From an uncultured Acidobacteriota bacterium (GTDB lineage: Bacteria; Acidobacteriota; Vicinamibacteria; Marinacidobacterales; SMYC01), in NCBI GenBank assembly GCA_963815675.1, contig CAWFHP010000006.1:448360-512359 (forward strand): DNA of 64,000 nt, read 5' to 3'. Shown here one piece after another: positions 8,348-45,642 of the stretch (position 1 is the first letter of the stretch; the number at the start of each line of letters is the position of its first letter). Position numbers and translations under genes: made by a program. Under the pieces are notes generated by a model. That model saw only the letters and a list, made by a program, of their open reading frames with translations, did no database searches and was not told the origin of the DNA.

Positions 8348-8367
8348 ACAGTAATGGCTTACGTGGC

Positions 8368-8444
8368 TGGTACGCCTGAGAGGATTCGAACCTCTGACCT
8401 TCTGCTCCGGAGGCAGACGCTCTATCCAGCTGAGCTACAGGCGC
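8368..8444 (-). tRNA. tRNA-Arg (anticodon CCG)
   Basis: Manual fold. Acceptor GCGCCTG, D-loop AGCTGGATAGAGC, anticodon loop CTCCGGA, T-loop GGTTCGAATCC, CCA. Confidence 0.8.
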
Positions 8445-14375: not shown

Positions 14376-15232
14376 GGAGCGTCGCCCTCCTTCTTCTCCT
14401 CACTAACGGAACCGGGCCCGGACAAGTTCGCGGTTTCTCGCCGCCCGACGAATTCGTCCATCGAGGCGTTGATCCCCATGAGCTCGGCGATGGAGTCGAA
14501 CCAGGAGACGGGAAGCAGTCGAATCCAGGCGATGGTCGAAACCATCGCGGGCATGAGCAGCTTTCGCTTGTCGGACTCGATGGCGCGGAGGATTCTCTCC
14601 GCCGCCGTCGTCTCGTCCAGGATGGGAAGAAGGAGGGGAAAGCGGCTCCTCGCTCCCTCGAACATCCCCGTCGCGATGTAGAACGGGCAAACGACCGTCG
14701 TCCGGATCGAGGGGGCTAGCTTCCGGAGCTCCATGCGCAGGGACTCGTCGAATCCGACCGCGGCCCACTTCGTCGCGCAGTAATCGGAAAGCCGCGGCAC
14801 CCCGATGAGACCCCCGGCGGAGGCGATGGTGACGATATGGCCCCGGTGCCGCTCGATCATCCCCGGGAGAAACGCCCGCGTCGTCCAGAAGAGCGACAGG
14901 GCGTTCACCGCGAAGCTCTTTTCGATGGTCTCGTCGGGGATCTCGAGAAGGCTCTTTCCGCTGACGACGCCCGCGTTATTAATGAGAACGTCGACGGGTG
15001 AAGCCCGGAGCGCGGCCTCGGCGACAGCCTTTCGATCCGAGACATCCACGACGGCGGTCGCGGCACGTGAGCCAAGGCTCGCGACCTCCGCCGCGACGGT
15101 CTCGAGACCGGTGTGGTTCAGATCCCACAGCGTGATCGTTCCACCTCGCCGGGCGACGCCGAGGGCCATCCGCCGACCGATACCGCTCGCGGCGCCGGTG
15201 ACGAGGACGTGGCTTCTGGCAAGCTCGGTCAT
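14372..15232 (-). CDS. SDR-family short-chain dehydrogenase/reductase
   Basis: Rossmann TGAASGIGR motif and the YxxxK catalytic dyad (YCATK). 286 aa. Overlaps the downstream permease gene by 4 nt. Confidence 0.85.
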   Translation of the reverse strand: MTELARSHVLVTGAASGIGRRMALGVARRGGTITLWDLNHTGLETVAAEVASLGSRAATAVVDVSDRKAVAEAALRASPVDVLINNAGVVSGKSLLEIPDETIEKSFAVNALSLFWTTRAFLPGMIERHRGHIVTIASAGGLIGVPRLSDYCATKWAAVGFDESLRMELRKLAPSIRTTVVCPFYIATGMFEGARSRFPLLLPILDETTAAERILRAIESDKRKLLMPAMVSTIAWIRLLPVSWFDSIAELMGINASMDEFVGRRETANLSGPGSVSEEKKEGDAP

Positions 15233-15305: not shown

Positions 15306-15932
15306 ATGAAAGGGCTCGCCCCCGTGGAAAGGATCGGCATGACGTCAGCGACGCCGAGCGCGGTTCCGGAACGAGACGTGTCCGAGGACGCCGGCTTGCT
15401 TCTCGTGGCCCACCGGAACGGCGATGGGGACGCCTTTCGAAAGCTCGTCGAGCGCTACCGGCGGCCCGTCTTCTCCTACCTGTTCCACTGCGGGGTCCCC
15501 GATCCCAATCGCGACGACCTCTTTCAGGAGATCTTCGTCCGCATCCACCGGAGGGCGTCGAGCTACCAGGCGGCGCGTCCCCTTCATCCCTGGCTTTTCA
15601 CCGTGGTCGCGAACGCGGTGCGAAGCTACTTCCGAAAGCAGAAGCGGTTCTCTCTCTTCGCCGGCCCGCCCTCGGAGAGCGTGAGAGACGACGCTCCCGA
15701 CGGCGAGACGGTGGCCTCCGCGAGAGAAACGACCGCGTGGCTCGAGCGCGCCATCCAGGGACTTCCCCTTCCGCAACGAGAGGTCCTGCTTCTCGCCGCC
15801 GTCGAGAACCTGCCTCTGAGCGACATCGCGTCGATCCTCGAGCTGCCCCTCAATACCGTGAAGACGCACCTGCGGCGCGCGCGTCTGCGGTTGATCGATG
15901 GCTACGAGCGGCGCACGGGAAGTGCATCATGA
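15306..15932 (+). CDS. ECF-family RNA polymerase sigma factor
   Basis: Sigma-70 regions 2 and 4 are present (DLFQEIFVRIHRR; LPLPQREVLLLAAVENLPLSDIA). Its stop overlaps the anti-sigma start (ATGA). Confidence 0.8.
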   Translation: MKGLAPVERIGMTSATPSAVPERDVSEDAGLLLVAHRNGDGDAFRKLVERYRRPVFSYLFHCGVPDPNRDDLFQEIFVRIHRRASSYQAARPLHPWLFTVVANAVRSYFRKQKRFSLFAGPPSESVRDDAPDGETVASARETTAWLERAIQGLPLPQREVLLLAAVENLPLSDIASILELPLNTVKTHLRRARLRLIDGYERRTGSAS

Positions 15933-18452
15933 GCGACATTCCAGAGACCTGCGAACGAGTTCGAGAAGAGCTGGCCGTCGTCGGCCGCGTACCGGAGGAC
16001 GAAGCTATCCGGGAGCACGTCGCGTCCTGCGAGGACTGCGCGCGGTTCGTCGAGAAGCTCACGGCTCTCGAGGCCGGGCTCCAAACGCTCGGCAGAGAGA
16101 GACGTCTCCGACGAGACGGTGAGCCGCCTCCTCGCAAGCCCCGAGCTCCGCAAACTCCCCTCCGTTCGATGGCAGTTCTGGGCCGCCGGGCTCGCCGCGT
16201 CGCTGCTGTTGATGGTCGTGTCCTGGCGTGCGGAGTTCTTTCAGCAGCGAGCGGTTTTGCACGAGCCCGAAATCGCGGCGTCGGCCGCGAAACGACCCGA
16301 GGCGGAGGTCCGTCTCCGGCAGGACGACCGAAGCGAGCTGAAAGACGAAAAGGAGCAGGGGTTGCTGGCGCTGCAGGCTCAGCGCGATCGGGCGCAACGC
16401 CAGAACGGTGCGGCCGCTGGCGTCGTTTCGGCCGGAAAGAAAGATTCCGTGGACGCGCCCGCTGAGCCTGAGCCCTCCTTCGCCCAACGCGACGTCGGAG
16501 TCCGTAGACAAGCTCGCGAAAACCGAGGAGGCCACGCAAGCAAACCGGATAAATGGTTTCGCCTTCAAGGGCTTCGTTGGCAGCTTCGCGGAGGGACAGG
16601 CTTCCTCCATGAACACTCCCGCGCGCCGCGCACAGAAAGAGCCTGTGTATCCCGAAAAGGCGATATCTGCCCATGTCCAGGGGACGGTGGTGCTCGAAAT
16701 CACCCTCGACCCCGAGGGGAACGTCACCGGCGCACGAGTCGTTCGATTGGTCCCGGGCCTCGACGAGGCCGCCCTGGACGCGGTCCGCCAGTGGAAGTAC
16801 GAAACCTCGGATTCGGACACGCCCCGCAGGTTCAACGTCTCCGTCGGAGTTTCGGCTTCCCGAAGCGCCGAAGCCACCGAAGCCACCGGATTTGGGCTCG
16901 GCGCGCTCCTTCCTCGAGGAACGGGACCGAGTGGAAGGCCTGCCCTTCGTCGACGCGCGAGGCTACTGGGCCAACACGTACATTCCCGGAGACGCGACTT
17001 TGCGGCGGCTCGCGGCCCGGCTCGGGAGCGAGGCTCCGGAGCTCCCGCATCGAGACGCAAGACCCGCCGCCCTTCCTCTCGATTCCATCCGCGACGTCGG
17101 CGCTCTCCCTCACGCTCCACGCCGATCGCGCCGGGATCACCGGGAAGAGCCGGCTCCTGGTGCAGGTGGGAATTCGCGCCGCCGACGGCGAGTCGCGGCG
17201 GCGGCCTCCCATGAACGTCGCCATCGTGCTCGACCTTCCTTTACGAAGCTCGCCCGAAGACGCGAAGGCGACCCGTGCCCTCCTCGAGGCGTTCGAAAGC
17301 GCGCGGGAGCCTGGCGACAATTTCCGTCTCCTCGCGACCGGACCCGGTGGAGGCGAGATTCTCTCTCCCGAGTCGTTTCGACGCGGCGCTCTAATTGTGG
17401 CACTCCGGGATCTCGACGAGCGCACGCCTGGTCCTCCGGAGACGTCGTTCACCGAAGCGGTCGCCCTTGCTTACGAGAACGTTCTCGCGGAAGACGACCC
17501 TACCCAGCCGCTCGGAACGAGCCTGGTGCTCGTGGTCTCGCGGCGAGCGCACCCGGCAGAGATTGAGGAGTGCCTCCGGCTCGCGAGCCAGGGAGCCATC
17601 GGGGGCGTCACGCTGAGCGCCGTCGACCTCGGTGCCGGTGTCCAGGATGCCGCGAGCGAGGCGAAACGTCTGGCGCTCGCCGGGCAGGGCCGCGCCTACG
17701 CGCTCGCGGAACGGCAAGATGCAGAAGCGACTTCCATCGTGGACCGGGAGCTCTCCGCGGCGAGCCGCACCGTGGCCCGCGCCATCCGGCTTCGCATCGA
17801 GCTCGCGGAAGGCGTCCGCCTCGTCGACGTTCTCGGCTCCGCTCCCTTGAACGTGCGCGAAACGGAGCGGACGCGAGCGGAGGAGCGGTCGATCGACCGC
17901 AGGCTCGCCCGCAACCTCGGTATCGAGGCCGACCGGGGAAAGGACGAGGACGGGATCCAGATTGTCATTCCCGCCTTCTACGCCGGAGACACGCACAGCA
18001 TCCTTCTCGACGTCGTCGCTCCCGGGCCCGGCCCCATCGCCGAAGTCACCGCGCGCTACAAGGACCTGGTCCAGCTCGAGAACACCGTCGCGCGAGCGAG
18101 CCTCGCGCTTCCCCGCTCGGAGGAAGCGGCTGGTCCTCTCGAGACGAGCGTTCTGAAGGACTACCTCGACTACCGCGTCTCGAAAGCGCTCGGTGACGCC
18201 TCGGAGGCGCTCCGCTACAAGAACGTGGCGCAAGCCGGCAGGAGCCTCGAGAACACCCGGGGTCTTCTGGCGGGGCTGAGCGTCGCGGTCCCGGCACTGA
18301 CTCACGATCGAGACGTCGAGAGGGACATAGGACTTCTCGACCGCTACCACGATTTCCTCGCCCGACCCGTCCAACCGAACTCGATTCAGAATCTCTACGA
18401 CTCCCTGCTCTACGCCTCCTCCCTCATGAGGCTCTGGCAGCCCGTTTCCTGA
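15929..18452 (+). CDS. Anti-sigma factor (zf-HC2) with a TM helix, a TonB-C-like domain and a C-terminal YfbK-like vWA module; several apparent frame changes
   Basis: N-terminal zf-HC2 (CEDCARFVEKL), then a frame change at a (GA)n run near 16100 into the TM helix (WQFWAAGLAASLLLMVVSW). The TonB_C region (PVYPEKAISAHVQGTVVLEITLDPEGNVTGARVV...DAVRQWKYE) lies in a third frame, 16408.., and the vWA module (PPMNVAIVLD...) returns to frame 0. Confidence 0.6.
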
Positions 18453-18465: not shown

Positions 18466-21400
18466 ATGAAAAAAAGAGGGACAGGCACTCATTTCGTCCT
18501 CGCGACCATGGTCGCGCTCTCCACGCTGGCGGCGAGTGGCATGGGCTTCGCACAAGAGGACCCACCGGGCCAGGTTCGATTGCCACTCGACGTCTACAAC
18601 CAGCTCGTGGACCAATCGCGCAATCCCGTCCCGAGGCCTCGCCCAGCCCCGGTGAACTTCGCTCTCGGGAGCGCGTCCGTGAACGTACGGGTCGCGACGA
18701 CGGAGCCGAGGGCGAGCGCCGAGGTGAGCGTAACCCTCTCGAATCGAGGTCTTCGAGAACGAGTGGGTGCTGATACCGGTGCTCGCACCAGGAACTCCGG
18801 TCACCCGCGTGCTGCTCCAGGGAAATCCCGTTCAGCTCGTTCCCACGGCCGAGGGGCTCTCGTGGGGGACCAACGTCAAAGGCTCCTACAGCATGGCGCT
18901 CTCCTACAACGTCGATGCCGCTTCCACGGGAAACGGCTACGTGCTCGCGGTACCTGTGCCCGAGGCCTCGTCGATTCAGCTCGTGGCGTCCCTTCCTGGA
19001 ACCGGGCTCGACGTCTCCGTCATCCCCGCGGCCGGCGTTCGCACATCGGCTTCAGGCTCCGCGACGAGCGTTCAAGCGACGATACCGTCCACGAGCGGAG
19101 TCCAGATCGCCTGGCACGCTCCCTCGGGGAAACTGCCCTCGATCGCGCGAGCTCTCTACCGAGGCGAGCTCTCGGACGGCTCGATCCTCTGGCGGGCCGA
19201 GCTCCAGGCCGACCTCTTCACCCAGGAGACGGCGATCCTCGCGCTCCTGCCGAGGACGGTCACGCTGGTGAGCCTCGCCATCGACGGCAAGGAGGCGCCC
19301 ATCCTCGTCGAAGGCGACCGCTTCGCGACACTCGTCCGCGGCCAGGGCTCACACCGCGTCGCGATCTCCTTCCTGACCCCGGTCGTTCAGGAGAACGGAC
19401 CACCTCGCACCGATCTGTTCGTGCCCCAGGTGCCGGTATCGCAAGTCGAGCTCGTGCTTCCGGGAAAAAAGGACGTCTCCGCCGCGCCTTCGGCGAGCGT
19501 CACGACGCGGTTGCGGGGAGGCACGACCGTAGCCACCGTTCACGTCCCGCTTACCGAGAAGGTCTCGCTTTCCTGGTCCGAAGCGATTCCCGAAATGGCG
19601 CGCCACGAGCTTCGGGCCAACGCGTCCATTTACCACGTGATCCGAGCCGAAGAGGGTGTCCTCTACGCGCGGGCGCACGTCGTCTACGAAGTGCAGCACG
19701 GCGGGACGAACCGCATCGAGCTTCAGCTTCCGCCCGCGGTCGAGGTGAACCAGGTGAGCTCCGAGGCGGGTGCCGTCGCCGACTGGAGAGTCGAGACCGA
19801 GGGGAATCGGCGCGCTCTTCGCATCTTTCTCAATCGTGAGCTCACGTCGGAGCTCAACCTGGTCGTCGAGTACAATCGTTCTCTCGGCTCTTCGGGTACC
19901 GAGGCCCTTCCGCTCTTGAGTGCCCTCGGTGTGGGACGCCAGCGAGGGATGGTCGCTCTCGTGTCGAGCCGCGACCGCGCTCTCAATCCCGCGGAGGATG
20001 GCGGCGCCACGCGCGTCGGTGAGAATCAGCTCCCTGGCTTCGTGCGGGACACCATCGACCGGACAATCGCGCACACCTTCAAGTACGTCGACGCACCGCC
20101 TTCGATGAGCGTCACCGCCTCCGCTCCCGAGCGAGCCGCAGGTCGATTCGATGCCGAGGTCGACTCTCTCCTGAGCATCGGTGAAGTCACGCTCGAGTCC
20201 TCCGCCAGCATCGACGTACACGTGAAGTCCGGAGGGGTGGATCGCGTCGAGCTTCTCCTTCCCGCGGGTGCCAACCTCCTCAATCTCGTGGCGCCGTCGC
20301 TCCGTACCCACCGGGTTGTCGACGGGGACCGCCCGGTCGTGGAGGTGGAGTTCACCCAGGAAATGGAAGGCGACTTCCGCATCGAGCTCAGCTACGAGCG
20401 CCTCCTGGACGAGAACGAGTCCGAAGTCCCCGCGACCACCGTCCGGGTCCGAGGGGCGGACGTGGAGCAGGGAAGAATCGCCATCGAGGCCTCGAGCGCC
20501 GTCGAGGTCGCGCCCCGGAGCGTCGAGGAGCTCTCCCCCATGGACGTACGCGAGCTTCCACGTCAGCTCGTCCTGCGCACGTCGCAGCCCATCCTCCATG
20601 CGTTCCGCTACGTGCGCGCGGATCCCGAGCCTCGACTCACGCTCGGCGTGACCCGTCATCCCCTGGTGGCGGTGCAGGAAGCGGTCATCGACCGCGCGGA
20701 GCACCGGACGCTCTTCACCCGGGACGGCCTCGCCGTCACCACGACCCGGTTTCAGGTACGCAATACTCGAAAACAATTCCTGCGGGTGCGGCTTCCCGAG
20801 GACTCGGAGATCTGGTCCGTCTTCGTCGCGGGAAAGGCGGAAAAGCCGGCTCTCGACGAGTCGGACGGCGCCAAGCGGTCGTACCTCATCAAGATCGTGA
20901 GCTCGACCGACGGTTTTCCCGTGGAGCTCGTCTACGCGACGCGGGTCTCCTCCATGTCGTCCCTGGGGACGGTGCGCGCTCGCCTCTCGAGACCGGACCT
21001 CCTGGTGACCACGTCTCACTGGGAGCTCTACGTCCCCGACGGATTCGACTACGGCAGGCCGTCGACGAACATGACCCTCCTCATCGACGGCGGCCGGGTT
21101 ACGAGAGACGCGATGGCACGCGAGATGGCGACCGCCGCCGATGCCGCGCAGACAGCCAACGTCGCCGAGCCGTTCCGGATCGACGTGCCGTCGTCGGGCC
21201 GCCGCTTCGCGTTCGAGATGCTCTACGCCAACCACGGCGATCTCGACGCCTCGGTCTCGATTCCGTACACGTCTCGGGGCGGCGCCGCCTTCGGTCAGAT
21301 CGTGAGCCTCCTGGGAATCTTCCTCGCCTTCGTCACGCTGAGACTCTGGCGTGCGAAAGAGGCGCGATACTCGATTCAGACGAAGCTGGCAACCGCGGCG

Positions 21401-21562
21401 GCCGCGGCGCTCCTGGTACTGGTCCCGGTTGGGGTCTACGGGGTGAGCTCGACACCCGCTCTGGTACTCGCGTTGGCTCTCCTGGTGCTCTCCGTCCGTC
21501 CGGAGCTGAAGCGCGCTCTCGATCGTTTCCGGTCGTCGAGAACGGCGGAGCAGAACGGCTGA
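18466..21562 (+). CDS. Large (~1030 aa) secreted hypothetical protein with two C-terminal TM helices; apparent frame change near 18740
   Basis: Signal peptide in ORF 18466.., then the 931-aa ORF 18767..21562 with a beta-rich body and C-terminal hydrophobic helices. Likely co-transcribed with the sigma/anti-sigma pair upstream. Confidence 0.55.
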
Positions 21563-23707
21563 CGACGCGGATATCGACCTGGGGGGCCTTTCGCTCTCCT
21601 ACGCAAACGGCAGGATATCGCGCAAGGGGCGTGCCGGGCCGACGTATAGCCCTGCGCAAAGTCGACGCCGGCCTTCTGGAGCAAAGCGGACGGTCTCGTC
21701 GTCGGTCACGAACTCCGCAATGGTCTTCTTGCTTCATGCCGCGGGCGATGCCGACGATGGCCTGGACGACGAGCTGGTCCATGGGGCTCTCCACGAGACC
21801 GCGGATGAAGTCGCCGTCGATCTTGAGGTAGTCGAAGGGCAGGTCCTTCAGGTAGTAGAAGGAGCCGAAGCCGGCGCCGAAGTCGTCGAGGGCTAGCCGG
21901 CAGCCGCAGGCGTGCAGCCGGTGGGCGAAGTCCTTGGCCTCCTCGATGTTCGCGATCGCCGCGGTCTCCGTCAGCTCGAAGACGAGCCGCGACGGATCGA
22001 TCCCGGCCTCGCCAGCGCGCCTTCGGTGAGCGCCGGCGACCGGGATTGCCGATCGATTTGCCCGAGAGGTTGACATGGAGCGCCAGTCGCGCGGCCGGCG
22101 CGCTCGTGCTCGGCGATGAGGTCGATCGCCTGGCGCGCGACCCAGCCGTCGATGGCCTGGATCAGCCCGAAGCGCTCGGCAACGTAGAGAAAGGTGCTGG
22201 GCGTGAGCGGCTCGCCGCCCTCGTCGTCCCGGAGGCGCAGCAGCACCTCGTACTGGTCGTACCTCGTTCGTCCGCAGGTCGAGGATCGGCTGGCAGTAGA
22301 GGACGAAGCGATCCTCCTCGAGCGCCGTGCGGAGCTGCTCCGCCTCGGCCTGCCGCGCGGACACCGCGCTCCCGGCTCCCCGGGGGGCGTACAAGGCGAA
22401 GCGGTTTCGGCCGGCCTCCTTGGCCTCGTACATTGCCTGGTCGGCGCACGCCAGCACCTCTACCGCCGAGAGGCCGTCGAACATGGCGAGCCCCACGCTG
22501 GCCGTGATCCGGATCGACCGATCCCCGAGCACCGCGACATGCTGGCTCAGGGCCTTGACTGTCCCGTCGGCCACGACCTGGGCCTGGTCGGCATCGGTCT
22601 GCGGGAAGAAGCACGGCGAACTCGTCTCCGCCTAGTCGCGCCAGGAGGTCCGTCTGGCGCATGCGATGCCTCAGAGGCGCTCGCCACGCCCTTGAGCAGG
22701 TCATCGCCCGCCTTGTGGCCGAAGGTGTCGTTGACATCCTTGAAATTGTCCATGTCGATCTCGAGCACGGCGGCCGGAGCTCCGTAGCGCGCGGCCCGCT
22801 CGGCCTCCCGGGAGAGCTCTTGCTCGAAACGGCGCCGGTTGAAGAGCCCGGTCAGGAAATCGTGGTCGATCAGGTACTCGAGGCGTCGCGCAAGCTCCTT
22901 CCGCTCGGAGATGTCTTGGACCTGGGAGACGACGTAGAGGAATCTGTCCTCGGCATCGCGGACGAGCGAGACGGTCACCAGCGCCCAGAAGTAATGGCCT
23001 CATGGCATGGCGGTACCGCTTCTCGATCTGGTAGCTGGGGATCCGCGCCGTCGAGCAGCTCGTGCCAAGCGTCCTCGTCGAGATCGACGTCTTCGGGATG
23101 GGTATGGCATCGCAGCGTCGTTGCCTTCACCTGCCCGCCGTGGCCCGGTGATCCGGCAGAGCGCATCGTTCACTTGCAGCCATCGGCCCTCCAAGTCCAC
23201 GAGCGCCATGCCGATGGGCGCGTTGGCGAATGCGCTCTCGAACTGGGCCTGCAGCTCGCGCAGCCCCTGTTCGTCCTTCTGGCGTTTCTTCTCGACGCGG
23301 TTACGTTCGAAGATTCGGCGGCGAAGCTCCGCGTTGGCCACTGCGAGCTCTTCCTCCGTCACCTTGCCGCCGCGAATGGCGTCCTCGAATGGCGCTCCTG
23401 TAGAGGCGAGGGGAACAATGCGACCACGCAGGGACTGCTCGAGCCCATCAGGAGCGAGGCGCAAGGTATTCGCGAGACGCTCCAGTCGGCTGATCGCCTG
23501 CTCGATGGCCTCCTGTTTGCGCCCCGTGCTGTCATGCCGCAGCGCAGCGCCGGTGGCTTCGAGCTCCTGGACCCAACTGGCCACATCCCCATCGAGCTCA
23601 ATCCGGACGTTCCGGATCCGCTGTTCTATCGACGGCAGCGCCGGGGTTTTCCGTGCAGATTTCTTGGAACGCCGAGGCTCACGTTCTGATCGACTGTCCA
23701 TTGACAA
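21436..23707 (-). pseudogene. Coiled-coil-PAS-GGDEF-EAL signalling protein, fragmented over at least 5 frames
   Basis: The PAS (FESAFANAPIGMALVDLEGRWLQVND), GGDEF (DHDFLTGLFNRRRFEQEL; RLGGDEFAVLL) and EAL (FVLYCQPILDL; LVFELTETAAIA; LKIDGDFIRGL; AQGY) pieces lie in ORFs 23000..23707, 22547..22978, 22162..22737, 21333..22574, 21971..22246 and 21436..21684. Confidence 0.6.
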
Positions 23708-23923
23708 ACTCCAACCTGCAAATTTTTTTCTTGATTATAACATCCGAATATTCGGCTGTTCAATACCCATGCCCCGACCGCTGAACCCCCCTTATCCCAA
23801 CCATGAAGCGAGCTCTTCGCCGAAAGATCGTGGTATGCTGCCGCGCCGCGGCGGCGCGGAACGTGAGCAAGGGGCACGACGGCTGCGCCGGCGTCGATTC
23901 CGCGACAGCCTCTCGAAAGGGAC

Positions 23924-25783
23924 ATGAAGATGACTGCGCCGACCGACCGCCGCCGATTCTTGCGTACGAGCGTCATCGGAGGCCTCGCGTTGACGCTGTC
24001 CGGCAAACGCTCGGCCCAAGGAGCCAGTTCCGGGTCGTCGTGCCGGGAACCTCTGCTTCCTCAGGAAGCTCCCGACCCTCGCTCCCGTCTCCGGCAGCTC
24101 GAGAGGACACGCAGCCTCTATATCTACGATTACGAGCGAATTCCCTCGCTGCCCATGGTGGAAAAGGTGCCTCCCCCGGACGCGTTCTCGCTCCCGTGGC
24201 TCCTCCAGGCGGGAGATCGCGTGGGGGACCTCGTCCGAAACTTCACGACCAGGCCCGGCATGACGGGGGCGGTCGCTTGGCGTCGCGCCGCCGAGATACT
24301 CTCGCGCGGCGCCGAGCTCGACGCGGGCCGGCTACTGGATGTCGCACGGCAATCGGCGTCTGCTCGAACGGGGCTCGATCGCGATCGCCCCCAGAGCCTG
24401 GACGACTACGCGGCGCTGTTTCGAACCATCGAGCCGCCCGGAATCATCGAGACTTTCCAGGACGATCGTGTTTTTGCGCTTCAGCGCGTGGCTGGGCCCA
24501 ATCCACTGGTGATTCGACAGGTCGCCGGACTCGACGACCGGTTCCCGGTCACGGAAGCGATGTACCGCTCCGTTCTACGGCACGACCGGCTCGATGCCGC
24601 GGCCAAGGAAGGTCGACTCTATCTCGCCGACTATGGCCAGCTCAACGGCGTCGAGAGAGGATTCTACCGCGGAGCCCCCAAGTTCCTCTCCGCCCCGCTC
24701 GCTCTGTTCGCGGTCGATCGACGGACGGGCGAGCTCGTTCCGATTGCGATTCAGTGCGAGCAGGAACCGGGCCCCGACAATCCGATTCTCACGAAGGATG
24801 ACGGTCACGCCTGGTCGATGGCCAAGACCCTCGTCCAGATCGCCGACGCCAACCTGCACGAGGCCGTCAGCCATCTCGGTCGCACGCACTTGTTCATCGA
24901 GCCCTTCGTGATCGCCACCGAGCGTCAGCTCGCGGAGAACCATCCTCTCCGACTCCTCCTGCGACCCCACTTCGAGGGAACGCTCGCCATCAACGAGCTC
25001 GCCCACAGACAATTGCTGGCTCCCGGCGGATTCGTGGACGAGCTCCTCGCGGGAACGCTGGAAGCCTCCTTGAGGCTCGCCGTCGAAGGAATACGAACCT
25101 ACGCCTTCGACGAAGCGATGCTGCCGAAAGCACTTCGATCGCGCGGAGTCGACGACCCCGGCGCTCTCCCGAGCTACCCCTATCGCGACGACGCGCTCCT
25201 CTACTGGAACGCGATCCGCGCCTGGGTACGCGACTATCTCGGGATCTACTATCGATCGGACGCGGATGTGCGGGACGACTTCGAGCTCGCCGGCTGGTAT
25301 CGGGAGCTCGTCGCTGCCGACGGCGGTCGTGTCACCGGTTTCGGTCGGGGTGACTCCATCGGAGGTCTGGACGAGGTCATCGATGCCGCCACCCTCCTCG
25401 TTTTCACGTCGAGCGTTCAGCACGCGGCACTGAACTTCCCTCAGTTCGATCTCATGACGTACGTCCCCAACATGCCGCTCGCGGGCTTCGCCCCGGCGCC
25501 CGCGTCCAGGGACGCCGACGAGCAGGACTTTCTCGATCTGCTTCCACCGATTCCTTCCGCGCGTCTCCAGCTCGTGATTCTCTATCTGCTGGGAACGGTC
25601 CACCACACGACGCTCGGCATGTATCGGGAAGAGGAGCTCTGCGATCCCCGGCTCCGGCGACCTCTCGCGAAATTTCGACACGAGCTCGATCGGATCGGCC
25701 GAATCATCGAGCAACGCAACCGCGTCCGCCCGCCCTACCCGTTCCTCGAGCGCCAGGGAATTCCGCAGAGCATCAATATTTGA
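23924..25783 (+). CDS. Lipoxygenase (Tat-secreted, bacterial mini-LOX)
   Basis: Intact 619-aa ORF. Tat signal (RRRFLRTSVIGGLALTL). Exact LOX iron-site spacing H-x4-H-x4-H-x17-H-x8-H (HEAVSHLGRTH...NH...PH). C-terminal isoleucine (IPQSINI). Confidence 0.85.
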   Translation: MKMTAPTDRRRFLRTSVIGGLALTLSGKRSAQGASSGSSCREPLLPQEAPDPRSRLRQLERTRSLYIYDYERIPSLPMVEKVPPPDAFSLPWLLQAGDRVGDLVRNFTTRPGMTGAVAWRRAAEILSRGAELDAGRLLDVARQSASARTGLDRDRPQSLDDYAALFRTIEPPGIIETFQDDRVFALQRVAGPNPLVIRQVAGLDDRFPVTEAMYRSVLRHDRLDAAAKEGRLYLADYGQLNGVERGFYRGAPKFLSAPLALFAVDRRTGELVPIAIQCEQEPGPDNPILTKDDGHAWSMAKTLVQIADANLHEAVSHLGRTHLFIEPFVIATERQLAENHPLRLLLRPHFEGTLAINELAHRQLLAPGGFVDELLAGTLEASLRLAVEGIRTYAFDEAMLPKALRSRGVDDPGALPSYPYRDDALLYWNAIRAWVRDYLGIYYRSDADVRDDFELAGWYRELVAADGGRVTGFGRGDSIGGLDEVIDAATLLVFTSSVQHAALNFPQFDLMTYVPNMPLAGFAPAPASRDADEQDFLDLLPPIPSARLQLVILYLLGTVHHTTLGMYREEELCDPRLRRPLAKFRHELDRIGRIIEQRNRVRPPYPFLERQGIPQSINI

Positions 25784-25831: not shown

Positions 25832-26122
25832 TCAGCGGTTGAAGGCCTGTCTCGCGCGCGCCGCCTGAATCTCGTGCAAGGTCTGCATGATGTTGAAAGC
25901 AGTCATCTCCACCAGGACCCGGGTGACCTTGTCGTGGAGCTCGTCGGAAAGCTGCCCCTCCACCGCCTTCATCGCCGCCGTCAGGCGAGACTGCTGTTCT
26001 TCCAGCTCCCGGTTTTCCACCACACCATCCGCCATCGCCTGGGTGAAAGAGGCGAGTTTCTGGACCATCTCGTCGATGGCGGGAAGATCGGATTTGTCGT
26101 TCAACCAGCTCGCACGCGCCAT
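25832..26122 (-). CDS. Small all-helical hypothetical protein (96 aa)
   Basis: Clean ORF ~200 bp downstream of the AAA ATPase on the same strand. No recognisable motif. Confidence 0.4.
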   Translation of the reverse strand: MARASWLNDKSDLPAIDEMVQKLASFTQAMADGVVENRELEEQQSRLTAAMKAVEGQLSDELHDKVTRVLVEMTAFNIMQTLHEIQAARARQAFNR

Positions 26123-26328
26123 GATCGCGACTCCTTTTCCTGAATGGCATCTACTGCATTAGTGCCGTGGGGCTCCACCCCCACGGCTTCTAGTGTCGTC
26201 GGCCCATCTGCCAGTGCGCGCTCTCTCCTCGTTCGCGCGCTGTCCTCCGCTCGCAGGCTCGCTGCGGACGGCGGCGGGCCGTGCTTCCTCCGGTCGCGCA
26301 GGGTGCGTGTGACTCTTTCAGCACCCTG

Positions 26329-28143
26329 CTACAGACTCTCTACCATCCGCTTGAGGAGCGTGAGACGCTCCTGCAATTTGCTCCGTCCGCCCTGTTTCTC
26401 GACGCGGGCAAGCGTCTCGGTCGTGAGGAACTGGCGGTCGGTACACTCGAGAATCGCCGCGACTTCCTGGAGCTCGCGCTCCAGACCTTGCGTCGAAGGC
26501 ATGAACTGCTTGATCACTTCCGCGAGAGTCTCACGGGTGATCGCGGACTGTCCCGCCAGCAGGGAACGCCGGAGCGCGCGGCCAACCATCCCCTCGATGT
26601 CGGCGCCGGAGAGCTCCCCGCGCTGAGGGATCTCGGGAACGTCCTCGATCGAGAGCACGGCGCCGAGCTTTTTCGCCAGAATCACGAACATCGATCGGAT
26701 CTCGTTCTCGTCGGTGGGATAAAAAAGCGGGATGTGTACCTCCGCTCGCCCCTGACGCTTGATGTCGATCGGGAGGAGGTCGGGCCTGCAGGTGAGCAGC
26801 ATCCAGAGGATCTGGCCGCGGTAGCGCGTGTCTCCCATCTGAGCGGCGATCATCGCGAAGACGCGGCTCGACGTACCCGAGTCGCCGTCTTGATCGCGGT
26901 TGCCGAGCGCCGCGTCGGCCTCATCGACCACCACCACCACCGGCCCCATCGCCCGGAGCACCGAGAGCACGCGCTCCAGGTTCCCCTCGGTCTCACCCAC
27001 GTACTTGGAACGGAAGTTCTTGAGCACGACGCAGGGAATTCCAATCTCGCCGGTAGCGCACTGGGCGAGAAAGGTCTTCCCCGTCCCCACCGGTCCGCAG
27101 ACCAGGTACCCCATGGGCAGGCTCTCGAGCGCTCCCCGCTTGAGCAGAGCGGCGTCTTCCCGGAGCCGGCCTTTGGCGCCCTCGTGGCCGATCACGAAGT
27201 CCAGGGTCCACCGCGGCTCGATGAACTCGAGAAGCCCTTGACACTGCCTCTCGATGAGGCGCTTCTTCAGCTCGCGAAACACCTTCTCGTCGAGTCTGCG
27301 GCCGCCTTCGACGGTGGATTGGATGAGGACGTTCACGTCAGTGAGTGAAATCCCGGCGGTGAGCTTGGCGAGCTCCGGCACCTCGAAATCGGAGAACTGC
27401 TTGAGATCGCGCTTCCCCACGGTGAAGCGGATGAAGCGCTCCCTCTCCGCCTGTTCGGGAAGAGGCACCTCAATCGCGGCCACGTGCAGGCTCCCGGAGA
27501 GACGCTCGGATACGGAGGAGAGCTTCTCTTCCACGAGAACGAAGGCCATGTTGAGCCGCTTCACGTGGGGGCTCGACGCCCAGTTGAGGAGGGTGACGAG
27601 ATTGGTGGAAGCGGATAGCGAAAGCTGACCCGGCTCTCCCGCCGGCGCGATGTACGAGGCGTGGTCGATGACGATCGCCATCGACAATCGGGCGTCTTCG
27701 GGCGCCATGACGTTGAGATAGACGGCGCGGTCGAGAGCGGAGAGCACCGAGGCCGGGTCCTTCTTCAGCTGCGAGAGGTCTCCTACCTTCCGGTTGGCGA
27801 GGGCGACCATGTCCTTCAGCCGATCGCCGTCGCGGCCGGACAGCGCCCTCAGCCCGCGCGCGAGGTCGTAGTGGAGCACGAGATTCCAGCGACCGAAGAT
27901 CTGCTCCGCCAGAAACTCGGAAAGAGTGACGTAGCGGGCATCCGCCTCCTCACCGCTCGGGACGAAGTCCTGCACGTTTCCATGCAGGATGAACATCGAC
28001 GTCGTTCCCGAGAAGTAGAGCTCGCCCATCCGACGGGCCCAGCCGGGAAGCCAGGCGGGGAGCGCTGCCGGCGTTCCCAATGGGTGCGTCTCGCGCTCGG
28101 CGGGAAGCGCACCACCCTGCTCGGGATCGGCCTCAGGCTTCAC
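26329..28143 (-). CDS. Classic-clade AAA+ ATPase with a large (~330 aa) N-terminal domain
   Basis: Walker A (GPVGTGKT), Walker B (VVVVDEAD) and second region of homology are present. SKYVGETEGNLERV is typical of the FtsH/Vps4/CDC48 clade. The N-terminal domain contains a degenerate P-loop-like ILHGNVQD. There is no protease or sigma-54 activator domain. Confidence 0.75.
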   Translation of the reverse strand: MKPEADPEQGGALPAERETHPLGTPAALPAWLPGWARRMGELYFSGTTSMFILHGNVQDFVPSGEEADARYVTLSEFLAEQIFGRWNLVLHYDLARGLRALSGRDGDRLKDMVALANRKVGDLSQLKKDPASVLSALDRAVYLNVMAPEDARLSMAIVIDHASYIAPAGEPGQLSLSASTNLVTLLNWASSPHVKRLNMAFVLVEEKLSSVSERLSGSLHVAAIEVPLPEQAERERFIRFTVGKRDLKQFSDFEVPELAKLTAGISLTDVNVLIQSTVEGGRRLDEKVFRELKKRLIERQCQGLLEFIEPRWTLDFVIGHEGAKGRLREDAALLKRGALESLPMGYLVCGPVGTGKTFLAQCATGEIGIPCVVLKNFRSKYVGETEGNLERVLSVLRAMGPVVVVVDEADAALGNRDQDGDSGTSSRVFAMIAAQMGDTRYRGQILWMLLTCRPDLLPIDIKRQGRAEVHIPLFYPTDENEIRSMFVILAKKLGAVLSIEDVPEIPQRGELSGADIEGMVGRALRRSLLAGQSAITRETLAEVIKQFMPSTQGLERELQEVAAILECTDRQFLTTETLARVEKQGGRSKLQERLTLLKRMVESL

Positions 28144-29094
28144 TTCGCTGTACTCCTCTCCAGTCGGTGTCGAGAATCGCCGGCGGCTCTTCCAGCTCGT
28201 CAGAGAGGCCGGTGATGTGCTGAAGCTCGCCCATGGCTTTTTCCGTCTGCCGCATGCTCTCGGCGACGGAATCGACCTGGCTGCTGAGGAAATCCGGGTC
28301 CTGGCGGTTCACCGCCGTCTCGGTGAGAACCTGGATCTTTCCCTCGATGCGATCGAGCTCGATGGCGACGAACTCGGCGTTCTTCTTCGCTTTGCGGTAG
28401 TTCTCGAGCCTGAGCTCGTTGACCGCCACGCTGTCCTGAAGAGATCGAATCATCCGTTCGTCGCCCTGGCCCTCGCTGGCCCTGGCCCTGAGTTTGAGTT
28501 TGAGTTTGAGCGGCGAGATTTTTCTTCAGCTCCTCGACTCGGTTGGTCATTTCCTTCTCATTCGTCGACCGGAGAAACCGCTCGAGCGCGTCCTGCGAGC
28601 GCAGCAAACGGAGGAAGAGCCAGAGAAGACGGTCGAGTACCGGCGTGCGGATCTCCTCGCCCACCGTTGCTCCCTGCGCGCCCGTGCCGCCGCGTACTCC
28701 ATGGGCGATGGCCCGCATTTCGACGCAGCGAGCACGCAGCTGATCGAATCGCTTGCCGCGCGTCGTTCGGAAGGCTGTCGAGGATCTCGGCCACCGAGCG
28801 CATCGCCGGCGGCGGCGGTCCGGAGACGACGTGCCCCTTCGCTTCCTGGTGCACTCGGGCGTCGATGGCCGCGCGAAACCTGGGAATGGAGACGAGTCCG
28901 GCCAGGTAGGTGAGCTCCCCCGCCGCCACCAGAGGCAGGAGCGCACCCGGCAGGGGAGAGAGGATCGCCGCTGCGCTCGCTCCCATGAAGAGGAGAAGGT
29001 TCCAGCGAAAGAAGAAGGCCTGCTTGAGATACTCACCCAGGCCGGCACCCTCTCGCAGAGGTCGTTTCGGCAGGCCGAGCCCGGGCGTGGTCAT
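28133..29094 (-). CDS. Membrane-anchored coiled-coil hypothetical protein with a PspA-C-terminus-like tail; 2 apparent frame changes
   Basis: ATG at 29094 lies 7 nt after the ABC ATPase stop. One or two TM helices (FFFRWNLLLFMGASAAAILSPLPGALLPLVAAG), a (QT)3(GQ)2 linker encoded by hexamer repeats, and a helical C-terminus (ORF 28133..28453). The pieces sit in ORFs 28558..29400, 28200..29048 and 28133..28453. Confidence 0.5.
28461..28509. repeat. Adjacent short tandem repeats (CCCTGG/CTGGCC x~3, then AGTTTG x3) in the linker of the membrane coiled-coil gene
   Basis: Read directly. Encode (QT)3(GQ)2 on the minus strand. A frame change is inferred here. Confidence 0.8.
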
Positions 29095-29101
29095 GCTGCG
29101 G

Positions 29102-29971
29102 CTACTCGTCTCCGGCTCGTGTGGAAGACTCGAGCTTCTCGACGATATCCCGAATCTCCCAGACCCGCTCGAGGAAGTCGGGCTTGCGCTCCATTTCCCG
29201 CGGTGGAAGGGCCGGGGGTGGCATCTCCATCTCGCGCAAGATGGTTCCTGGAGACGAGGAGAAGATGTAGACGCGGTCGCCGAGGTAGACCGCTTCCTCG
29301 ATCGAGTGGGTAATGAAGAAGACCGTCGCCTCGTTCTCTCTCCACAGATCGACGAGGAGCTCCTGCATGTTGAGCCGGGTCGGAGGGTCGAGGGCACCAA
29401 AGGGCTCGTCCATGAGAATGATTCGGGGAGAGAGGATGAGGGTCCGCGCGATCGCCACCCGCTGCCTCATTCCACCCGAGAGCTGATGGGGAAACTTGTC
29501 GGCATCGCGCTTCACGTCGAGGCCGACCTTGCCGATCCACTGCCGGGCGCGGGTGTAGCGCTCCTCGGCGTCGACCCCGCGGCACTCGAGACCGAACGCC
29601 ACGTTGTCGAGAACCGAGCGGTTGTCGAACGAGGTGTAGTCCTGAAAAACCATGCCGCGATCCGAGCCCGGTCCCGAGACCGGCTTCCCGTCCACCAGCA
29701 CTTCCCCTTGGCTCGCCGGGTGATGGGGCCTCAACCCGGCGATGAGGCGCAGCACCGTCGACTTGCCGCATCCGGATGGACCGAGGATGGCGACGAACTC
29801 GCCGCGATCGGGTCGATCCTTGACGGTGAAGGTCACGTCCCGGATGGCAGTGAAGCCGTTCTGCGGATCGCCGAAACGCTTGGTCACGTTTCTGAACTCG
29901 ACCACCGCCCGGAGCTCCGCCGACGGATCGGCCCCGGCGGGCGAGGACGGCGCCTTCTCCGCCACGCTCAC
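29102..29971 (-). CDS. ABC transporter ATP-binding protein (NitT/TauT SsuB-like)
   Basis: Walker A GPSGCGKST, signature LSGGMRQR, Walker B ILMDEPFGALD. GTG start at 29971 overlaps the permease stop (GTGA). Confidence 0.85.
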   Translation of the reverse strand: MSVAEKAPSSPAGADPSAELRAVVEFRNVTKRFGDPQNGFTAIRDVTFTVKDRPDRGEFVAILGPSGCGKSTVLRLIAGLRPHHPASQGEVLVDGKPVSGPGSDRGMVFQDYTSFDNRSVLDNVAFGLECRGVDAEERYTRARQWIGKVGLDVKRDADKFPHQLSGGMRQRVAIARTLILSPRIILMDEPFGALDPPTRLNMQELLVDLWRENEATVFFITHSIEEAVYLGDRVYIFSSSPGTILREMEMPPPALPPREMERKPDFLERVWEIRDIVEKLESSTRAGDE

Positions 29972-30792: not shown

Positions 30793-32532
30793 CAGTTGCC
30801 CGTGGGCGTGGCTTCCGCCGGAAAGACCTTGATCTCCACCCGGCGATTCTTCGCCTGATTCAACGGATCCTGCGGATCGGCAGGACGATCCCAACCCATG
30901 CCCGACGTCGAGAACTGGTTTGGCTGGAGAGTCTTGAACTTCCGCAGGATGGCCTCTTTGACCGAGTTGGCTCGGTTGCGCGAGAGCTCCTTCACCAGGT
31001 TATCCGGCGTTCTCCCCTTCATGGAGGAGTCGGTATGGCCCTCGATGACGATGCGCGCGGCCCCGTATTGGCCGGCGAGCTTTCCGACCTCTTCGACGAC
31101 GAAGTCGGCGTTGGGATCGTAGAGCTCCTCGCGATCCTTCCCGTCCACGTTCTTCGTGATCTTCTTGTTCAAGTCCCACGAGTTGGGGAAGAAATGGATG
31201 ACCACGGTCTTGGTGAGGATCTCGTTGCTTTCGGCCTCGATCGCGCCGGCGGGCGAGGGAGCGAACTGAACGTCGTACTCGTTGCGCTGATTGGCGTACT
31301 TCGCTTCGTTTCCCAGCTTCTGGATGACCGAGAAGTCCATGACCTGGTCGAAAGGAGTCTTGTCGCTCACCACTCCGATCTTCTTGTACAGGAAGTACGC
31401 GGTGTTCCAGGTACGCTCGAAATTGGTGGGGTTGTTCTGGTTCAGGAAGAACTCGCGGTTCTCGGCGTAGTTGGTGGAGTGAGCGTCCCCGAGCATGCCG
31501 AGCGCGTCCGTTTCCGGAATGGAATAGCCGTCAGCCATGAGCTTGGCGGCTTTCTGTTTGGCATCTTGCTGCTTCAAGTCGACCATGGCATCGAGGATGC
31601 CGCGCACCAGGCCCTCGGTGATGTCGGGGTTATCCTTGGCGAAGTCGGCCCGGGCGAACCAGACGTCGGCAATGAGCTTGTTGGCCGTTGCGGTCGTGAC
31701 GAGAAGGCGGTTGCCTTTGATGTTTTCCAGGTTGTAGATGTCCGGTGCCCAGCTCACGCATCCAGCGATGGACTTGTCGGCGTTGAAGGCGGCCGCTGCC
31801 TGGAACGCGTCCTGGGTGAACTTGAAATCCACCTCCCCTGGCTGCACACCGGAGTTGATGAGCGCGTTCAGCGCGAAGAAATGCGAGGGCGAGTTCTGCG
31901 CCAGCACGAGAGTTTTTCCGCGCAGGTCGGACATGGTCTTGATGCTGTCGCGCACCACGATCCCGTCTCCGCCATTGGACCAGTCGATTTGCTGGAACAC
32001 GCGCGGCATCACCCGGGAGTCCTTTCTCAAGCCCCTCGAGAAACAGGGGGATCATGTCCAGCGTGGCCCATCCGACATGGACGTTGCCGGCGGCATAGGC
32101 GTCGCGCATGGCCACCGGATCGTCGATCAAAACCAGCTCCACTTTGAAGTCCTTGCCGGTCGGGGTCTTCCACGCCTTGCCCGGCTTGAAGCCATCGTTG
32201 GCATAGATGATCGGGCTCCAACCGGCCCAGACGTTGATGGCGAAGCGCACGGTGCGGTCGGCCATGGGCTTGTAGTTGGAGATCCCCGAGACCTCGGGGA
32301 GCTTCGCCGCCGGAACGTAGTTGTACTCCTTGACGGTGGTGATGCCCCCGCTGTCGGGAGCCTCGGCGCCGCCCACCGCGTTTTGCAGGTCCTGCTGGCT
32401 GATCTTGGCGCCGCCCTCACCGCTGGTTCCGAGGGCTCCGAACCGCCAGAGCGCGAGGCCGACCAGGCCCAGGATGACGACCAGCACCGCGAGATAGAAG
32501 GACGGTTTTGGCTTTCCGCTCGACATCTTCAA
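30792..32532 (-). CDS. ABC substrate-binding protein (NMT1/SsuA-like) fused to a C-terminal OmpA-like peptidoglycan-binding domain; apparent frame change near 32035
   Basis: Signal-anchor N-terminus (ORF 31630..32532) continues into the SBP body (ORF 30792..32030) across a GGGGG run. C-terminus is OmpA-like (IVIEGHTDSSMKGRTPDNLVKELSRNRANSVKEAIL...NRRVEIKV). Confidence 0.65.
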
Positions 32533-32563
32533 ACCTCCGAAGGGGACTCGCGTCCAGACGCGA

Positions 32564-33329
32564 TCAATTCGTTTGCTCTTCCTTGGTCTTGCTCGTTACC
32601 TGCGCCGGCCCGAGCTCCTTCGCGGACTCGGCCACCGGAGTGGTCTCGGGCGACTTCAAACCCAGCTCGACCTCGTAGTCGGTGAGCGCTTGCTCGGCCA
32701 GCGCCTGCTCCATTTTCTCCTCGGCCTGGATCTCGGCGACCCCTTTCTCGGAGAGATCGACGGCGACCCGGGTCTTGCCGCGGTTCTTGTCGATTTTCTC
32801 CTGGATGACGGTCTCGAGCTGACCGAAATCGGTCGTGACGTTCATGTCGAAGCTCTCGGCGAGTGCCGCGATCTCGGCTTCGGCGGCAGCTCATCTTCAG
32901 CTCGGCGTCATATTTCTGTATCTTTTGCCTGACGTCGACGAGCTTGGAATTGGCGTGCTTGATCTTCTTCAGGTTGTTCTCGTACGCCATCTCGTGCATC
33001 TTGAGCTGCTCTTCGTTGGACACCAGCTCCTTTTGCGCCTTCTGGAGCTCCAGGGCGAACTTCGCCGCCGTCGGCCGATCGCCGGCTTTGAGGTAGGCCT
33101 TCGTCTCCGCCTCGAGCTTCTGGACGTGCTCGCGGTTGGTATCGACTTGACGGGTGACCCGCTCCACCAGGCCGCGGTACTGCTCGAGTCCGCGCCGCCC
33201 TTCCTTGAGCTGTTCGACGGCGAGGTCGTACTCGTACTGCATCTGGGCGATGGGGTCCGCTTCCCAAAAGAGGTTGGCGAGCTGGTTCAGCTGGGCGCGA
33301 AAAGCGGCCCAGATCTTTCCGAAAATCAT
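32564..33329 (-). CDS. pspA: PspA/IM30/Vipp1-family (bacterial ESCRT-III-like) protein; apparent frame change near 32895
   Basis: N-terminus MIFGKIWAAFRAQLNQLANLFWEADPIAQMQYEYDLAVEQLKEG... is canonical PspA. The C-terminal helices continue in ORF 32564..32845 after a 1-bp frame break. Confidence 0.75.
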
Positions 33330-45588: not shown

Positions 45589-45642
45589 GATCGAACCAAC
45601 AAACTATAAAGGAGCATGGAGCTGGAGACAAGGAGGCGACGT

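Follow-up and report, generated by a model that had tools for sequence, protein, structure and literature searches.

The 64,000-nucleotide stretch of DNA analysed here (the window), part of contig CAWFHP010000006.1 from an uncultured Acidobacteriota bacterium, carries a gene for a lipoxygenase (LOX) whose product is predicted to be exported. The protein has a complete predicted set of metal ligands, a predicted N-terminal signal of the twin-arginine translocation (Tat) type, and a pair of cysteines, Cys40 and Cys573, which is characteristic of its clade. On balance we favour, with fair though far from full confidence, the reading that this is a catalytically competent LOX which is exported by Tat, stapled by a Cys40-Cys573 disulfide and forms n-6 S-hydroperoxides.

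Identification of the lipoxygenase

The first-pass annotation had placed a LOX gene at 23924-25783 on the forward strand, and the program-made list of open reading frames (ORFs) has there, as stated, an ORF of 619 amino acids. Residues are numbered throughout in this 619-residue form, counted from the ATG at 23924. The family match was far above chance: the Pfam Lipoxygenase model (PF00305) scored 190.9 bits over residues 178-600 (gathering score 23.6; E=5.2e-56). A phmmer search of all PDB chains returned 55 lipoxygenases, with the Enhygromyxa salina enzyme 8x8f at the top (E=1.6e-123), followed among others by CspLOX2 of Cyanothece sp. PCC 8801 (6.9e-118) and Pa-LOX, the LoxA protein of Pseudomonas aeruginosa (8e-111). 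NCBIfam had no matching LOX model for the window protein.

Measured against its homologues and against the LOX of its 92% identical relative, locus L081, the ORF is full length, and the alignment runs from one end to the other. The phase of GC content at third codon positions (GC3) was uniform along the gene, with no frame break inside it. A truncated gene, which had been named as a possible objection, was thus not seen. The sequence strongly supports the prediction of an intact, full-length bacterial LOX with all catalytic residues present.

Metal site and predicted specificity

The iron ligands of CspLOX2 are His257, His262, His449, Asn453 and the carboxylate of the C-terminal Ile569 (PMC5437038). 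In an ungapped HMMER alignment they pair one-to-one with H317, H322, H500, N504 and I619 of the window protein, which in Pa-LOX align with His377, His382, His555, Asn559 and the C-terminal Ile685. The predicted iron ligand set is therefore complete. The signature H-x4-H-x4-H-x17-H-x8-H, claimed from the letters alone, is exact at residues 312-349, but its description as “perfect iron-ligand spacing” fits the signature and not the ligand set. Of its five histidines, H317 and H322 alone are ligands, while H312, H340 and H349 are conserved but do not serve as such; H500 and N504 lie about 180 residues downstream. The claimed C-terminal Ile ligand was found too: the protein ends in ...PQSINI with the stop immediately after, Ile619 aligns with the known ligand Ile, and nearly all homologues have Ile or Val at this end.

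In a 22-sequence alignment the five signature histidines and H500 were invariant and N504 was at least 90% conserved. The signature histidines had isolated exceptions only across more than 120 homologues, one of them at H340. Loss of activity-critical residues from the closest homologues had been raised as a possible objection; these residues are kept in all homologues.

The Coffa-Brash position, A360 here, is Ala in 112 of 114 homologues, and Ala at this site is the state of S-specific enzymes (PMC5437038). Together with A360, the clamp residues L318, I356, L364, I552 and L556 are the same as L378, I416, A420, L424, I608 and L612 of Pa-LOX and as the human 15S-LOX row in Table 1 of PMC5437038. 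The clamp differs from that of CspLOX2 at the fifth position, where I552 stands against Leu502. Given Ala360, and a clamp equal in all six residues to that of the P. aeruginosa and human 15S enzymes, the most likely product type is predicted to be S in stereochemistry with n-6 specificity, as in 13S-hydroperoxyoctadecadienoic acid or 15S-hydroperoxyeicosatetraenoic acid. CspLOX2 is a linoleate 11R-LOX; with Ile552 as in the 15S enzymes, a bis-allylic 11R product would not be expected here.

Fold and comparison with known lipoxygenases

An AlphaFold2 model was built on 22 homologues (predicted template modelling score 0.80, mean predicted local distance difference test (pLDDT) 74). Residues 1-38 had pLDDT below 50 except for an isolated helix at 9-24, and residues 41-70 were at about 90. 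Between the signal and the catalytic domain the model has a helical extension with helices at 52-63, 90-107, 114-127, 134-146 and 159-168 and short strands only. The LPQxDPxP segment at residues 45-52 belongs to the N-terminal part that is ordered in the crystals of the E. salina and Cyanothece enzymes, and by phmmer the extension aligns with the N-terminus of the E. salina LOX. Pfam gave no PLAT domain match in the window LOX. In a Foldseek comparison with the PDB, all of the 50 best matches listed were lipoxygenases with probability 1.00 and TM scores of 0.72-0.81. They included 8x8f (TM about 0.80, 40% identity over about 612 columns), Pa-LOX (0.79, 35-36%) and CspLOX2 (0.77, 38%), and the next matches were human 15-LOX-2, 5-LOX and coral 8R-LOX. 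As modelled, the protein is a bacterial “mini-LOX” with a helical extension and no PLAT barrel.

The E. salina LOX (8x8f, released in 2024) was the best match in both sequence and structure. It has the same ligands and the C-terminal Ile, and the alignment spans the LPQxDPxP segment, the helical extension and the catalytic domain. It differs in being myxobacterial, in having Lys at the C573 position, and in that its crystallised chain opens 4 residues before LPQ. We found no paper in the open literature citing 8X8F.

CspLOX2 (5med) is likewise a mini-LOX, of 569 residues and without a C2-like domain, with the same ligands and with Ala300 and Leu304 at the places of A360 and L364. It has no signal peptide, and its identity to the window LOX is 37-38%.

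Pa-LOX (4g32, 5ir4, 5ir5; a 15S-LOX) also lacks PLAT and has a helical N-terminal extension, and it shares the five ligands and all six clamp residues, the Coffa Ala among them. Its identity to the window LOX is 35-36% for the whole protein and 46% in the catalytic half. Cys is absent from the C40 and C573 positions, with Phe at the latter, and the host of Pa-LOX is a gammaproteobacterial pathogen, whereas the host of the window LOX is acidobacterial and probably a soil organism.

At one P. aeruginosa locus (L080, 1892-3939), loxA was called as two overlapping ORFs of 380 and 312 amino acids, which suggests a frameshift. The 312-residue product is recorded on 129 contigs, so that many sequenced strains may carry the gene in split form.

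Predicted signal peptide and export

The Tat pathway carries folded, often cofactor-loaded proteins. The N-terminus of the window protein, MKMTAPTDRRRFLRTSVIGGLALTLSGKRSAQGASSGSSC, has the parts expected of a Tat signal: the motif D8-R9-R10-R11-F12-L13-R14, the hydrophobic (h-) region TSVIGGLALTLSG, and a basic c-region, KRSAQGA, with candidate signal-peptidase I sites. Compared with the consensus S/T-R-R-x-F-L-K, Asp replaces Ser/Thr and Arg replaces the terminal Lys. The two Arg, the Phe and the Leu were invariant in 25 of 25 N-termini of the clade, with a mean identity of 42% elsewhere in the N-terminal alignment. By a rule-based scan, the twin arginine is followed in 21 of the 25 by 13 or more uncharged residues in a row (13 in the window protein), the c-region is basic in 20, and a small-x-small peptidase site is present in all 25. 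The only families matched by several clade N-termini were curated Tat-signal models: TIGR01409 matched 14 members at E<=1 (best E=4.4e-4) and the formate-dehydrogenase Tat region matched six.

The twin-arginine signal named in the first-pass annotation thus gains from the invariant motif, from the features of the h- and c-regions and from the clade-specific cysteine pair described below. It loses on the curated hidden Markov models, since the window signal stayed below their cut-offs (14.2-14.6 against 16.7 bits for TIGR01409, 13.9 against 22.7 for PF10518), and one clade member with the same twin-arginine motif gave no Tat-model match; these results count against Tat. The Tat assignment is well motivated, though formally sub-threshold. 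Export as such, with the signal cleaved around residues 31-38, is the prediction that we hold with most confidence.

The most serious alternative is that the protein is exported by the general secretory (Sec) pathway, or is tethered by an uncleaved signal anchor, and that the twin arginine is not a functional Tat determinant. We consider this unlikely, but it keeps real weight. The sub-threshold TIGR01409 and PF10518 scores would fit with it, and a disulfide goes more easily with Sec export of an unfolded chain. The signal of Pa-LoxA also contains a twin arginine, within 19 residues of classical type (MKRRSVLLSGVALSGTALA). However, R-R-x-F-L is not a conserved feature of Sec signals and is invariant here, the signal, at 30-35 residues, is a long one whose h-region is weakly hydrophobic and rich in Gly, Ala and Thr and whose c-region is mostly basic, and matches shared by several members are confined to Tat-signal models. 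We therefore keep Tat as the preferred route.

Exported bacterial LOX is already known, because Pa-LoxA has an N-terminal signal and is mainly periplasmic (PMC11011848). Its N-terminus, taken from a P. aeruginosa genome locus, reads MKRRSVLLSGVALSGTALA followed by NDS after the cleavage site; it lacks the F-L-K consensus and gave no Tat-model match. From Pa-LoxA, with this short signal, the window clade differs by the type of its signal, by the cysteine pair and by its phylum. A search of the open literature, with subscription journals outside it, found no relevant link of lipoxygenase to the Tat pathway, and no paper in the open literature was found naming both “PA1169” and “Tat”. A 2026 review of bacterial LOXs and an ecology preprint made no mention of Acidobacteria, Planctomycetes, signal peptides or Tat.

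Phylogeny and distribution

LOXs are rare in bacteria; a screen (PMC6612559) places them in under 0.5% of sequenced bacterial species. We found at least 593 stretches encoding a LOX relative in 185,579 species-representative genomes. The closest genome-assigned LOXs (71-72% identity) came from Acidobacteriota metagenome-assembled genomes. Among 79 species-representative genome loci retrieved, two carried the signal, and both were these Acidobacteriota loci. A regular expression for the Tat motif gave five extra matches over the 79 loci, which all lay inside mature sequence and were false.

Phylogeny was addressed with a quick neighbour-joining (NJ) distance tree of the catalytic half, without support values and with Pa-LOX as the chosen outgroup. 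The window LOX fell inside a monophyletic group of 30 signal-bearing sequences. Its sister group was made up of 93 mostly signal-less sequences of about 582 amino acids, including those of Planctomycetota and two other Acidobacteriota; beyond it came the cyanobacterial LOXs, and then CspLOX2 and the E. salina LOX. By this tree, an enzyme that had been cytoplasmic seems to have gained the signal once.

The signal-less sister clade (Gemmataceae of the Planctomycetota and others, with some Acidobacteriota) is 45-53% identical to the window LOX and has the same ligands, the Coffa Ala and the LPQxDPxP start of the mature fold. It differs in that its proteins have no signal and begin 4 residues before LPQ (MSxF-LPQ), and they are presumably cytoplasmic. 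Apparently the signal-bearing proteins form a small, undescribed lineage of exported LOXs, so far only in Acidobacteriota where a genome is assigned.

Three more distant LOXs (P0104, P0037 and P0025) have N-termini of the twin-arginine type and lack the cysteine pair. In the NJ tree P0104 sits among cyanobacterial sequences, a hint that a Tat-like signal was gained a second time, independently.

Gene mobility

The first-pass annotation had described the LOX gene as stand-alone and possibly acquired by horizontal transfer. Its isolation was supported, with both neighbours on the other strand and no conserved partner in five other contexts; in the LOX contexts examined, there was no conserved lipase, peroxidase, P450 or fatty-acid transporter. 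A comparison of GC content and codon usage with the neighbours found the gene ordinary for the window. Against the 31 other genes of the window, z was 0.33 for GC, -1.09 for GC3 and -0.18 for synonymous codon choice, and the tetranucleotide distance was average, 65% of equal-size windows being at least as deviant.

In L081, a neighbouring gene for a 1031-residue protein is 95% identical to its counterpart in the window. Between this gene and the LOX gene, L081 has a 0.75-kb segment with a DTW-domain gene on the opposite strand in place of the 2.3-kb GGDEF segment of the window, and its sequence downstream of the LOX gene is unrelated to the AAA cluster of the window. The nearest genome loci, L001 and L002, had no flanking synteny with the window beyond the LOX gene itself. 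In other members of the clade the LOX gene was found on two contigs between genes for a LigD primase-polymerase and a DNA ligase, elsewhere after an amidohydrolase/2-oxoglutarate-oxygenase cluster, and in one case 66 nt after a DDE transposase.

A recent horizontal acquisition in this genome, with LOX as an island gene, we regard as improbable. It would account for the flanks, which differ from L081 on both sides although the LOX and the 1031-residue protein are 92% and 95% identical, for the degraded gene next to LOX, for the changing context in every clade member examined, the transposase case included, and for the patchy occurrence of LOX genes across phyla. On the other hand, GC, GC3, codon choice and tetranucleotides are ordinary, no tRNA, integrase or transposase adjoins the gene, and the closest relatives belong to the same phylum as the host. 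Since the window and L081 share the left-hand anchor gene, their common ancestor already had LOX at this locus. So the proposal of horizontal acquisition does not hold for a recent event, while transfer over longer times is plausible in view of the changing contexts, the transposase neighbour and the patchy phyla. The LOX gene behaves like a lone unit, moved again and again to new sites in the course of evolution.

In the transposase case (P0061, L083 7183-9847), a DDE_3 transposase ends 66 nt before LOX, and the LOX, of 576 amino acids, is followed by a 39-residue ORF. The C-terminal Ile ligand is thus missing, and this copy has probably been disrupted.

Clade-specific cysteine pair

Cysteines were tabulated for 114 near-full-length sequences (the query and 113 homologues). 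The twin-arginine signal occurred together with both C40 and C573 in 26 of them; three others had the signal with neither Cys (S/S, T/T and P/S at the two positions). Among the 85 signal-less sequences, 84 lacked both, as is the state of the sister clade, and a single exception had C573 alone. Because both cysteines appear, persist and vanish together, and in proteins predicted to be exported only, the pattern is best explained as a C40-C573 disulfide that would be formed outside the cytoplasm.

That Cys40 might instead be the lipidated +1 Cys of a (Tat-dependent) lipoprotein, with the enzyme anchored in the membrane, seems very improbable to us. A Cys does stand just past the signal in 23 of 25 clade members; but the three residues before it (for example ESL, ERV, DSR or GTP) fit even a generous lipobox in only three of the 23, and its distance from the h-region varies from 2 to 13 residues across the clade. 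Its gains and losses also coincide with those of Cys573, at a distance of about 530 residues; a lipidation site would need no such partner. The window protein itself failed a test with [LVI][ASTVI][GAS]-C, having GSS-C 12 residues beyond the h-region. A disulfide with Cys573 remains the preferred role of Cys40.

Translation start

The longest ORF opens at 23924, but the true product start is most likely the second ATG, at 23930, which gives 617 amino acids, because a Shine-Dalgarno-like motif (AAGGGA) stands ahead of it and because only the start ATG-ACT-GCG (MTAP...) is conserved in L081, where the first ATG is out of frame. The gene call of JGI in this relative is a 615-residue form. We found no terminator-like site, and no sigma-70-like promoter on the forward strand for LOX.

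The public product P0001, 100% identical to the window protein, has 542 amino acids and begins at Met78 (24155), and thus leaves out 23924-24154 of the window, with the signal peptide and about 40 residues of ordered mature N-terminus. This start is almost certainly wrong, since 25 homologues, down to about 53% identity, cover the upstream residues. A cytoplasmic protein starting at Met78, with the 77 upstream codons untranslated, has the deposited annotation and the signal-less sister clade on its side, but is hardly credible given the protein-level conservation of these codons, which include the LPQxDPxP segment ordered in the crystallised E. salina LOX and CspLOX2, the pLDDT of residues 41-70, the longer JGI call in L081 and the Shine-Dalgarno-like motif ahead of 23930, with no comparable one ahead of 24155. 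The Met78 gene call could mislead localisation surveys and expression constructs. Several related database entries, of 533-544 amino acids, are cut short in the same way.

Neighbouring genes and other features

Coordinates of the LOX gene, its functional sites and its upstream neighbour are collected in Table 1.

Table 1. Features of the lipoxygenase locus (positions in the window)
Feature	Position	Strand	Remarks
Degraded PAS-GGDEF-EAL gene	21563..23707	-	5' end faces LOX, 216 nt from the LOX ORF start; divergent
Homology block with L081	23828..25784	+	90% nucleotide identity (blastn); about 100 bp of 5' leader and the LOX coding sequence; similarity ends at the stop codon
Shine-Dalgarno-like AAGGGA	23917..23922	+	7 nt ahead of ATG 23930
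Predicted Tat-type signal, residues 1 to about 35	23924..24028	+	D-R-R-R-F-L-R at nt 23945-23965 in the n-region
LOX coding sequence from the conserved start	23930..25783	+	617 aa; longest ORF opens 6 nt earlier, at 23924
Cys40 codon	24041..24043	+	A few residues past the predicted cleavage site; putative disulfide partner of Cys573
Helical N-terminal extension, residues 43 to about 190	24050..24493	+	Replaces the eukaryotic PLAT/C2 beta-barrel; conserved LPQxxPxP at its start
Five-His signature H312-x4-H317-x4-H322-x17-H340-x8-H349	24857..24970	+	Exact regular-expression match, found once; includes clamp L318
Oxygen-channel/clamp residues I356, A360 (Coffa-Brash site), L364	24989..25015	+	Pa-LOX Ile416/Ala420/Leu424; CspLOX2 Ile296/Ala300/Leu304
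H500-A-A-L-N504, third His and Asn ligand	25421..25435	+	Aligned to CspLOX2 His449/Asn453 and Pa-LOX His555/Asn559
Clamp I552, L556, bottom of substrate channel	25577..25591	+	Aligned to Pa-LOX Ile608/Leu612; CspLOX2 Leu502 at the first
Cys573 codon (ELCDPR)	25640..25642	+	AlphaFold2 block 571-580, pLDDT 91; putative partner of Cys40
C-terminal Ile619 and TGA stop	25778..25783	+	Carboxylate is the predicted fifth ligand; aligned to Ile of Pa-LOX, CspLOX2 and E. salina LOX

The upstream PAS-GGDEF-EAL remnant is present and fragmented, as had been noted, but lies divergent from LOX and not convergent to it. It is split over at least four frames, with Pfam matches to GGDEF profile positions 2-65, 66-90 and 116-161 and EAL positions 108-202 in separate ORFs; along its length the GC3 phase switches three times or more, and the 3' end of the remnant merges into the adjoining gene. 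It may be a real pseudogene or the product of a locally poor assembly. In the intergenic region shared with LOX there is a strong sigma-70-like promoter on the reverse strand (23734-23763; TTGAAC, 18 nt, TATAAT, with extended TG), which faces the degraded GGDEF gene. A near-perfect palindrome of 22 bp (AACATCCGAAT/ATTCGGCTGTT; 23739-23760) overlaps it and could be an operator.

Downstream, the convergent cluster had been described as AAA/PspA. The gene of a 96-residue product and the AAA gene are indeed convergent to LOX, but Pfam, NCBIfam and PADLOC found no PspA in any downstream ORF. The AAA ATPase, of 604 amino acids, lies within 25832-28453 on the reverse strand; its N-terminal part of about 340 residues is unannotated, and it is flanked by ORFs of 96 and 106 amino acids, for which no family was above threshold. 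It showed only a generic AAA-domain likeness to IetA (PADLOC) and to proteasomal/CDC48 ATPases, and no partner protease was found. The ORFs at 28133-29400 on the reverse strand were considered as one frameshifted coiled-coil gene, for which the GC3 phase signal gave no support.

The large gene on the left (18466-21562, forward strand) encodes the conserved protein of 1031 amino acids in L081, with C-terminal hydrophobic helices and without a match in Pfam, NCBIfam or PADLOC. In the window it is broken by one extra A at about 18743 (CTCGAATCGAGG against CTCGA-TCGAGG in L081), and the ORF list gives 931 amino acids. Before it, a 777-residue ORF (16119-18452) is equally without annotation, and its C-terminus is also found upstream in L081. 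Elsewhere, at about 2100-3000 and about 32000-33250 on the reverse strand, two or three changes of GC3 phase fall within about 1 kb, which suggests further frameshifted genes or assembly indels. Some of the “pseudogenes” of the window may be consensus indels.

Further away, a duplicated permease of the ADOP family, a family named for Acidobacteria, is encoded at 11916-14375 on the reverse strand (TIGR03434, 909 bits against a cut-off of 622), which like the nearest LOX relatives points to an acidobacterial host; it is adjoined by genes for an extracytoplasmic function sigma factor (15306-15932) and a short-chain dehydrogenase/reductase (14372-15232). Two tRNA clusters, at 8272-8444 (Lys-Arg) and at 45512-45924 on the reverse strand (Arg-His-Arg-Pro), are both away from LOX.

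Proposed mechanism and significance

We propose that the precursor would be made from the ATG at 23930 and would fold and take up its metal in the cytoplasm; metal insertion there would follow from export by Tat, whose cargo is folded. The folded precursor would pass the inner membrane with its cleavable signal of roughly 30-35 residues (DRRxFLR, an h-region of Gly, Ala, Leu and Thr, a basic c-region), and the mature enzyme would be set free in the periplasm or beyond it. Once outside the cytoplasm, Cys40, by then close to the mature N-terminus, may be joined to Cys573 in a staple that stabilises the protein. Fe(III)-OH bound by H317, H322, H500, N504 and the carboxylate of I619 would abstract the bis-allylic hydrogen of a fatty acid with a 1Z,4Z-pentadiene unit, and addition of O2 would give a hydroperoxide, predicted to be of the n-6 S type. 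By analogy with periplasmic Pa-LoxA, which acts on external fatty acids (PMC11011848), the substrates might be mainly exogenous polyunsaturated lipids of plant, fungal, algal or soil-fauna origin. Our confidence decreases from export with cleavage, through the Tat route, the C40-C573 staple and the n-6 S-hydroperoxides, to the exogenous substrates.

Several further points weigh against this scheme. Since Tat carries proteins that are already folded, a disulfide needed for folding itself would be hard to accommodate, and only a staple made after export would fit. The cysteine pair maps to about one gain on the NJ tree, where 28 sequences with the pair are nested and two Cys-less ones branch first; the weight of the pattern therefore lies in its conservation and not in repeated co-evolution. 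The AlphaFold2 model is weak at residues 172-193, 503-517 and 603-619, which include the C-terminus that should reach the metal. Fe and Mn are not distinguishable by sequence, and CspLOX2 was crystallised with Mn substituted (5meg). Prediction of regiospecificity from alignment is unreliable for bacterial LOXs (PMC13319228).

In a wider and more tentative view, which we would not yet back at even odds, a monophyletic lineage assigned to Acidobacteriota may have turned a cytoplasmic LOX into a Tat-exported enzyme, preloaded with its metal (Fe or Mn) and locked by C40-C573. If so, its solution to cofactor loading would be unlike the classical signal of Pseudomonas LoxA. If Tat export and the disulfide are both real, the clade would show how a preloaded, metal-dependent lipid oxygenase can be delivered outside the cytoplasm. 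A 2026 review named low stability and uncertain iron loading as the main obstacles for biocatalysis with bacterial LOXs, and on the same condition the clade might offer a more stable scaffold. Bacterial LOX biology has so far been known mainly from one pathogen. The present lineage would point to oxylipin chemistry in an abundant soil phylum, and soil acidobacteria would gain a means of oxidising polyunsaturated lipids of plants, fungi and microfauna outside the cytoplasm, with possible roles in oxylipin signalling, detoxification or foraging.

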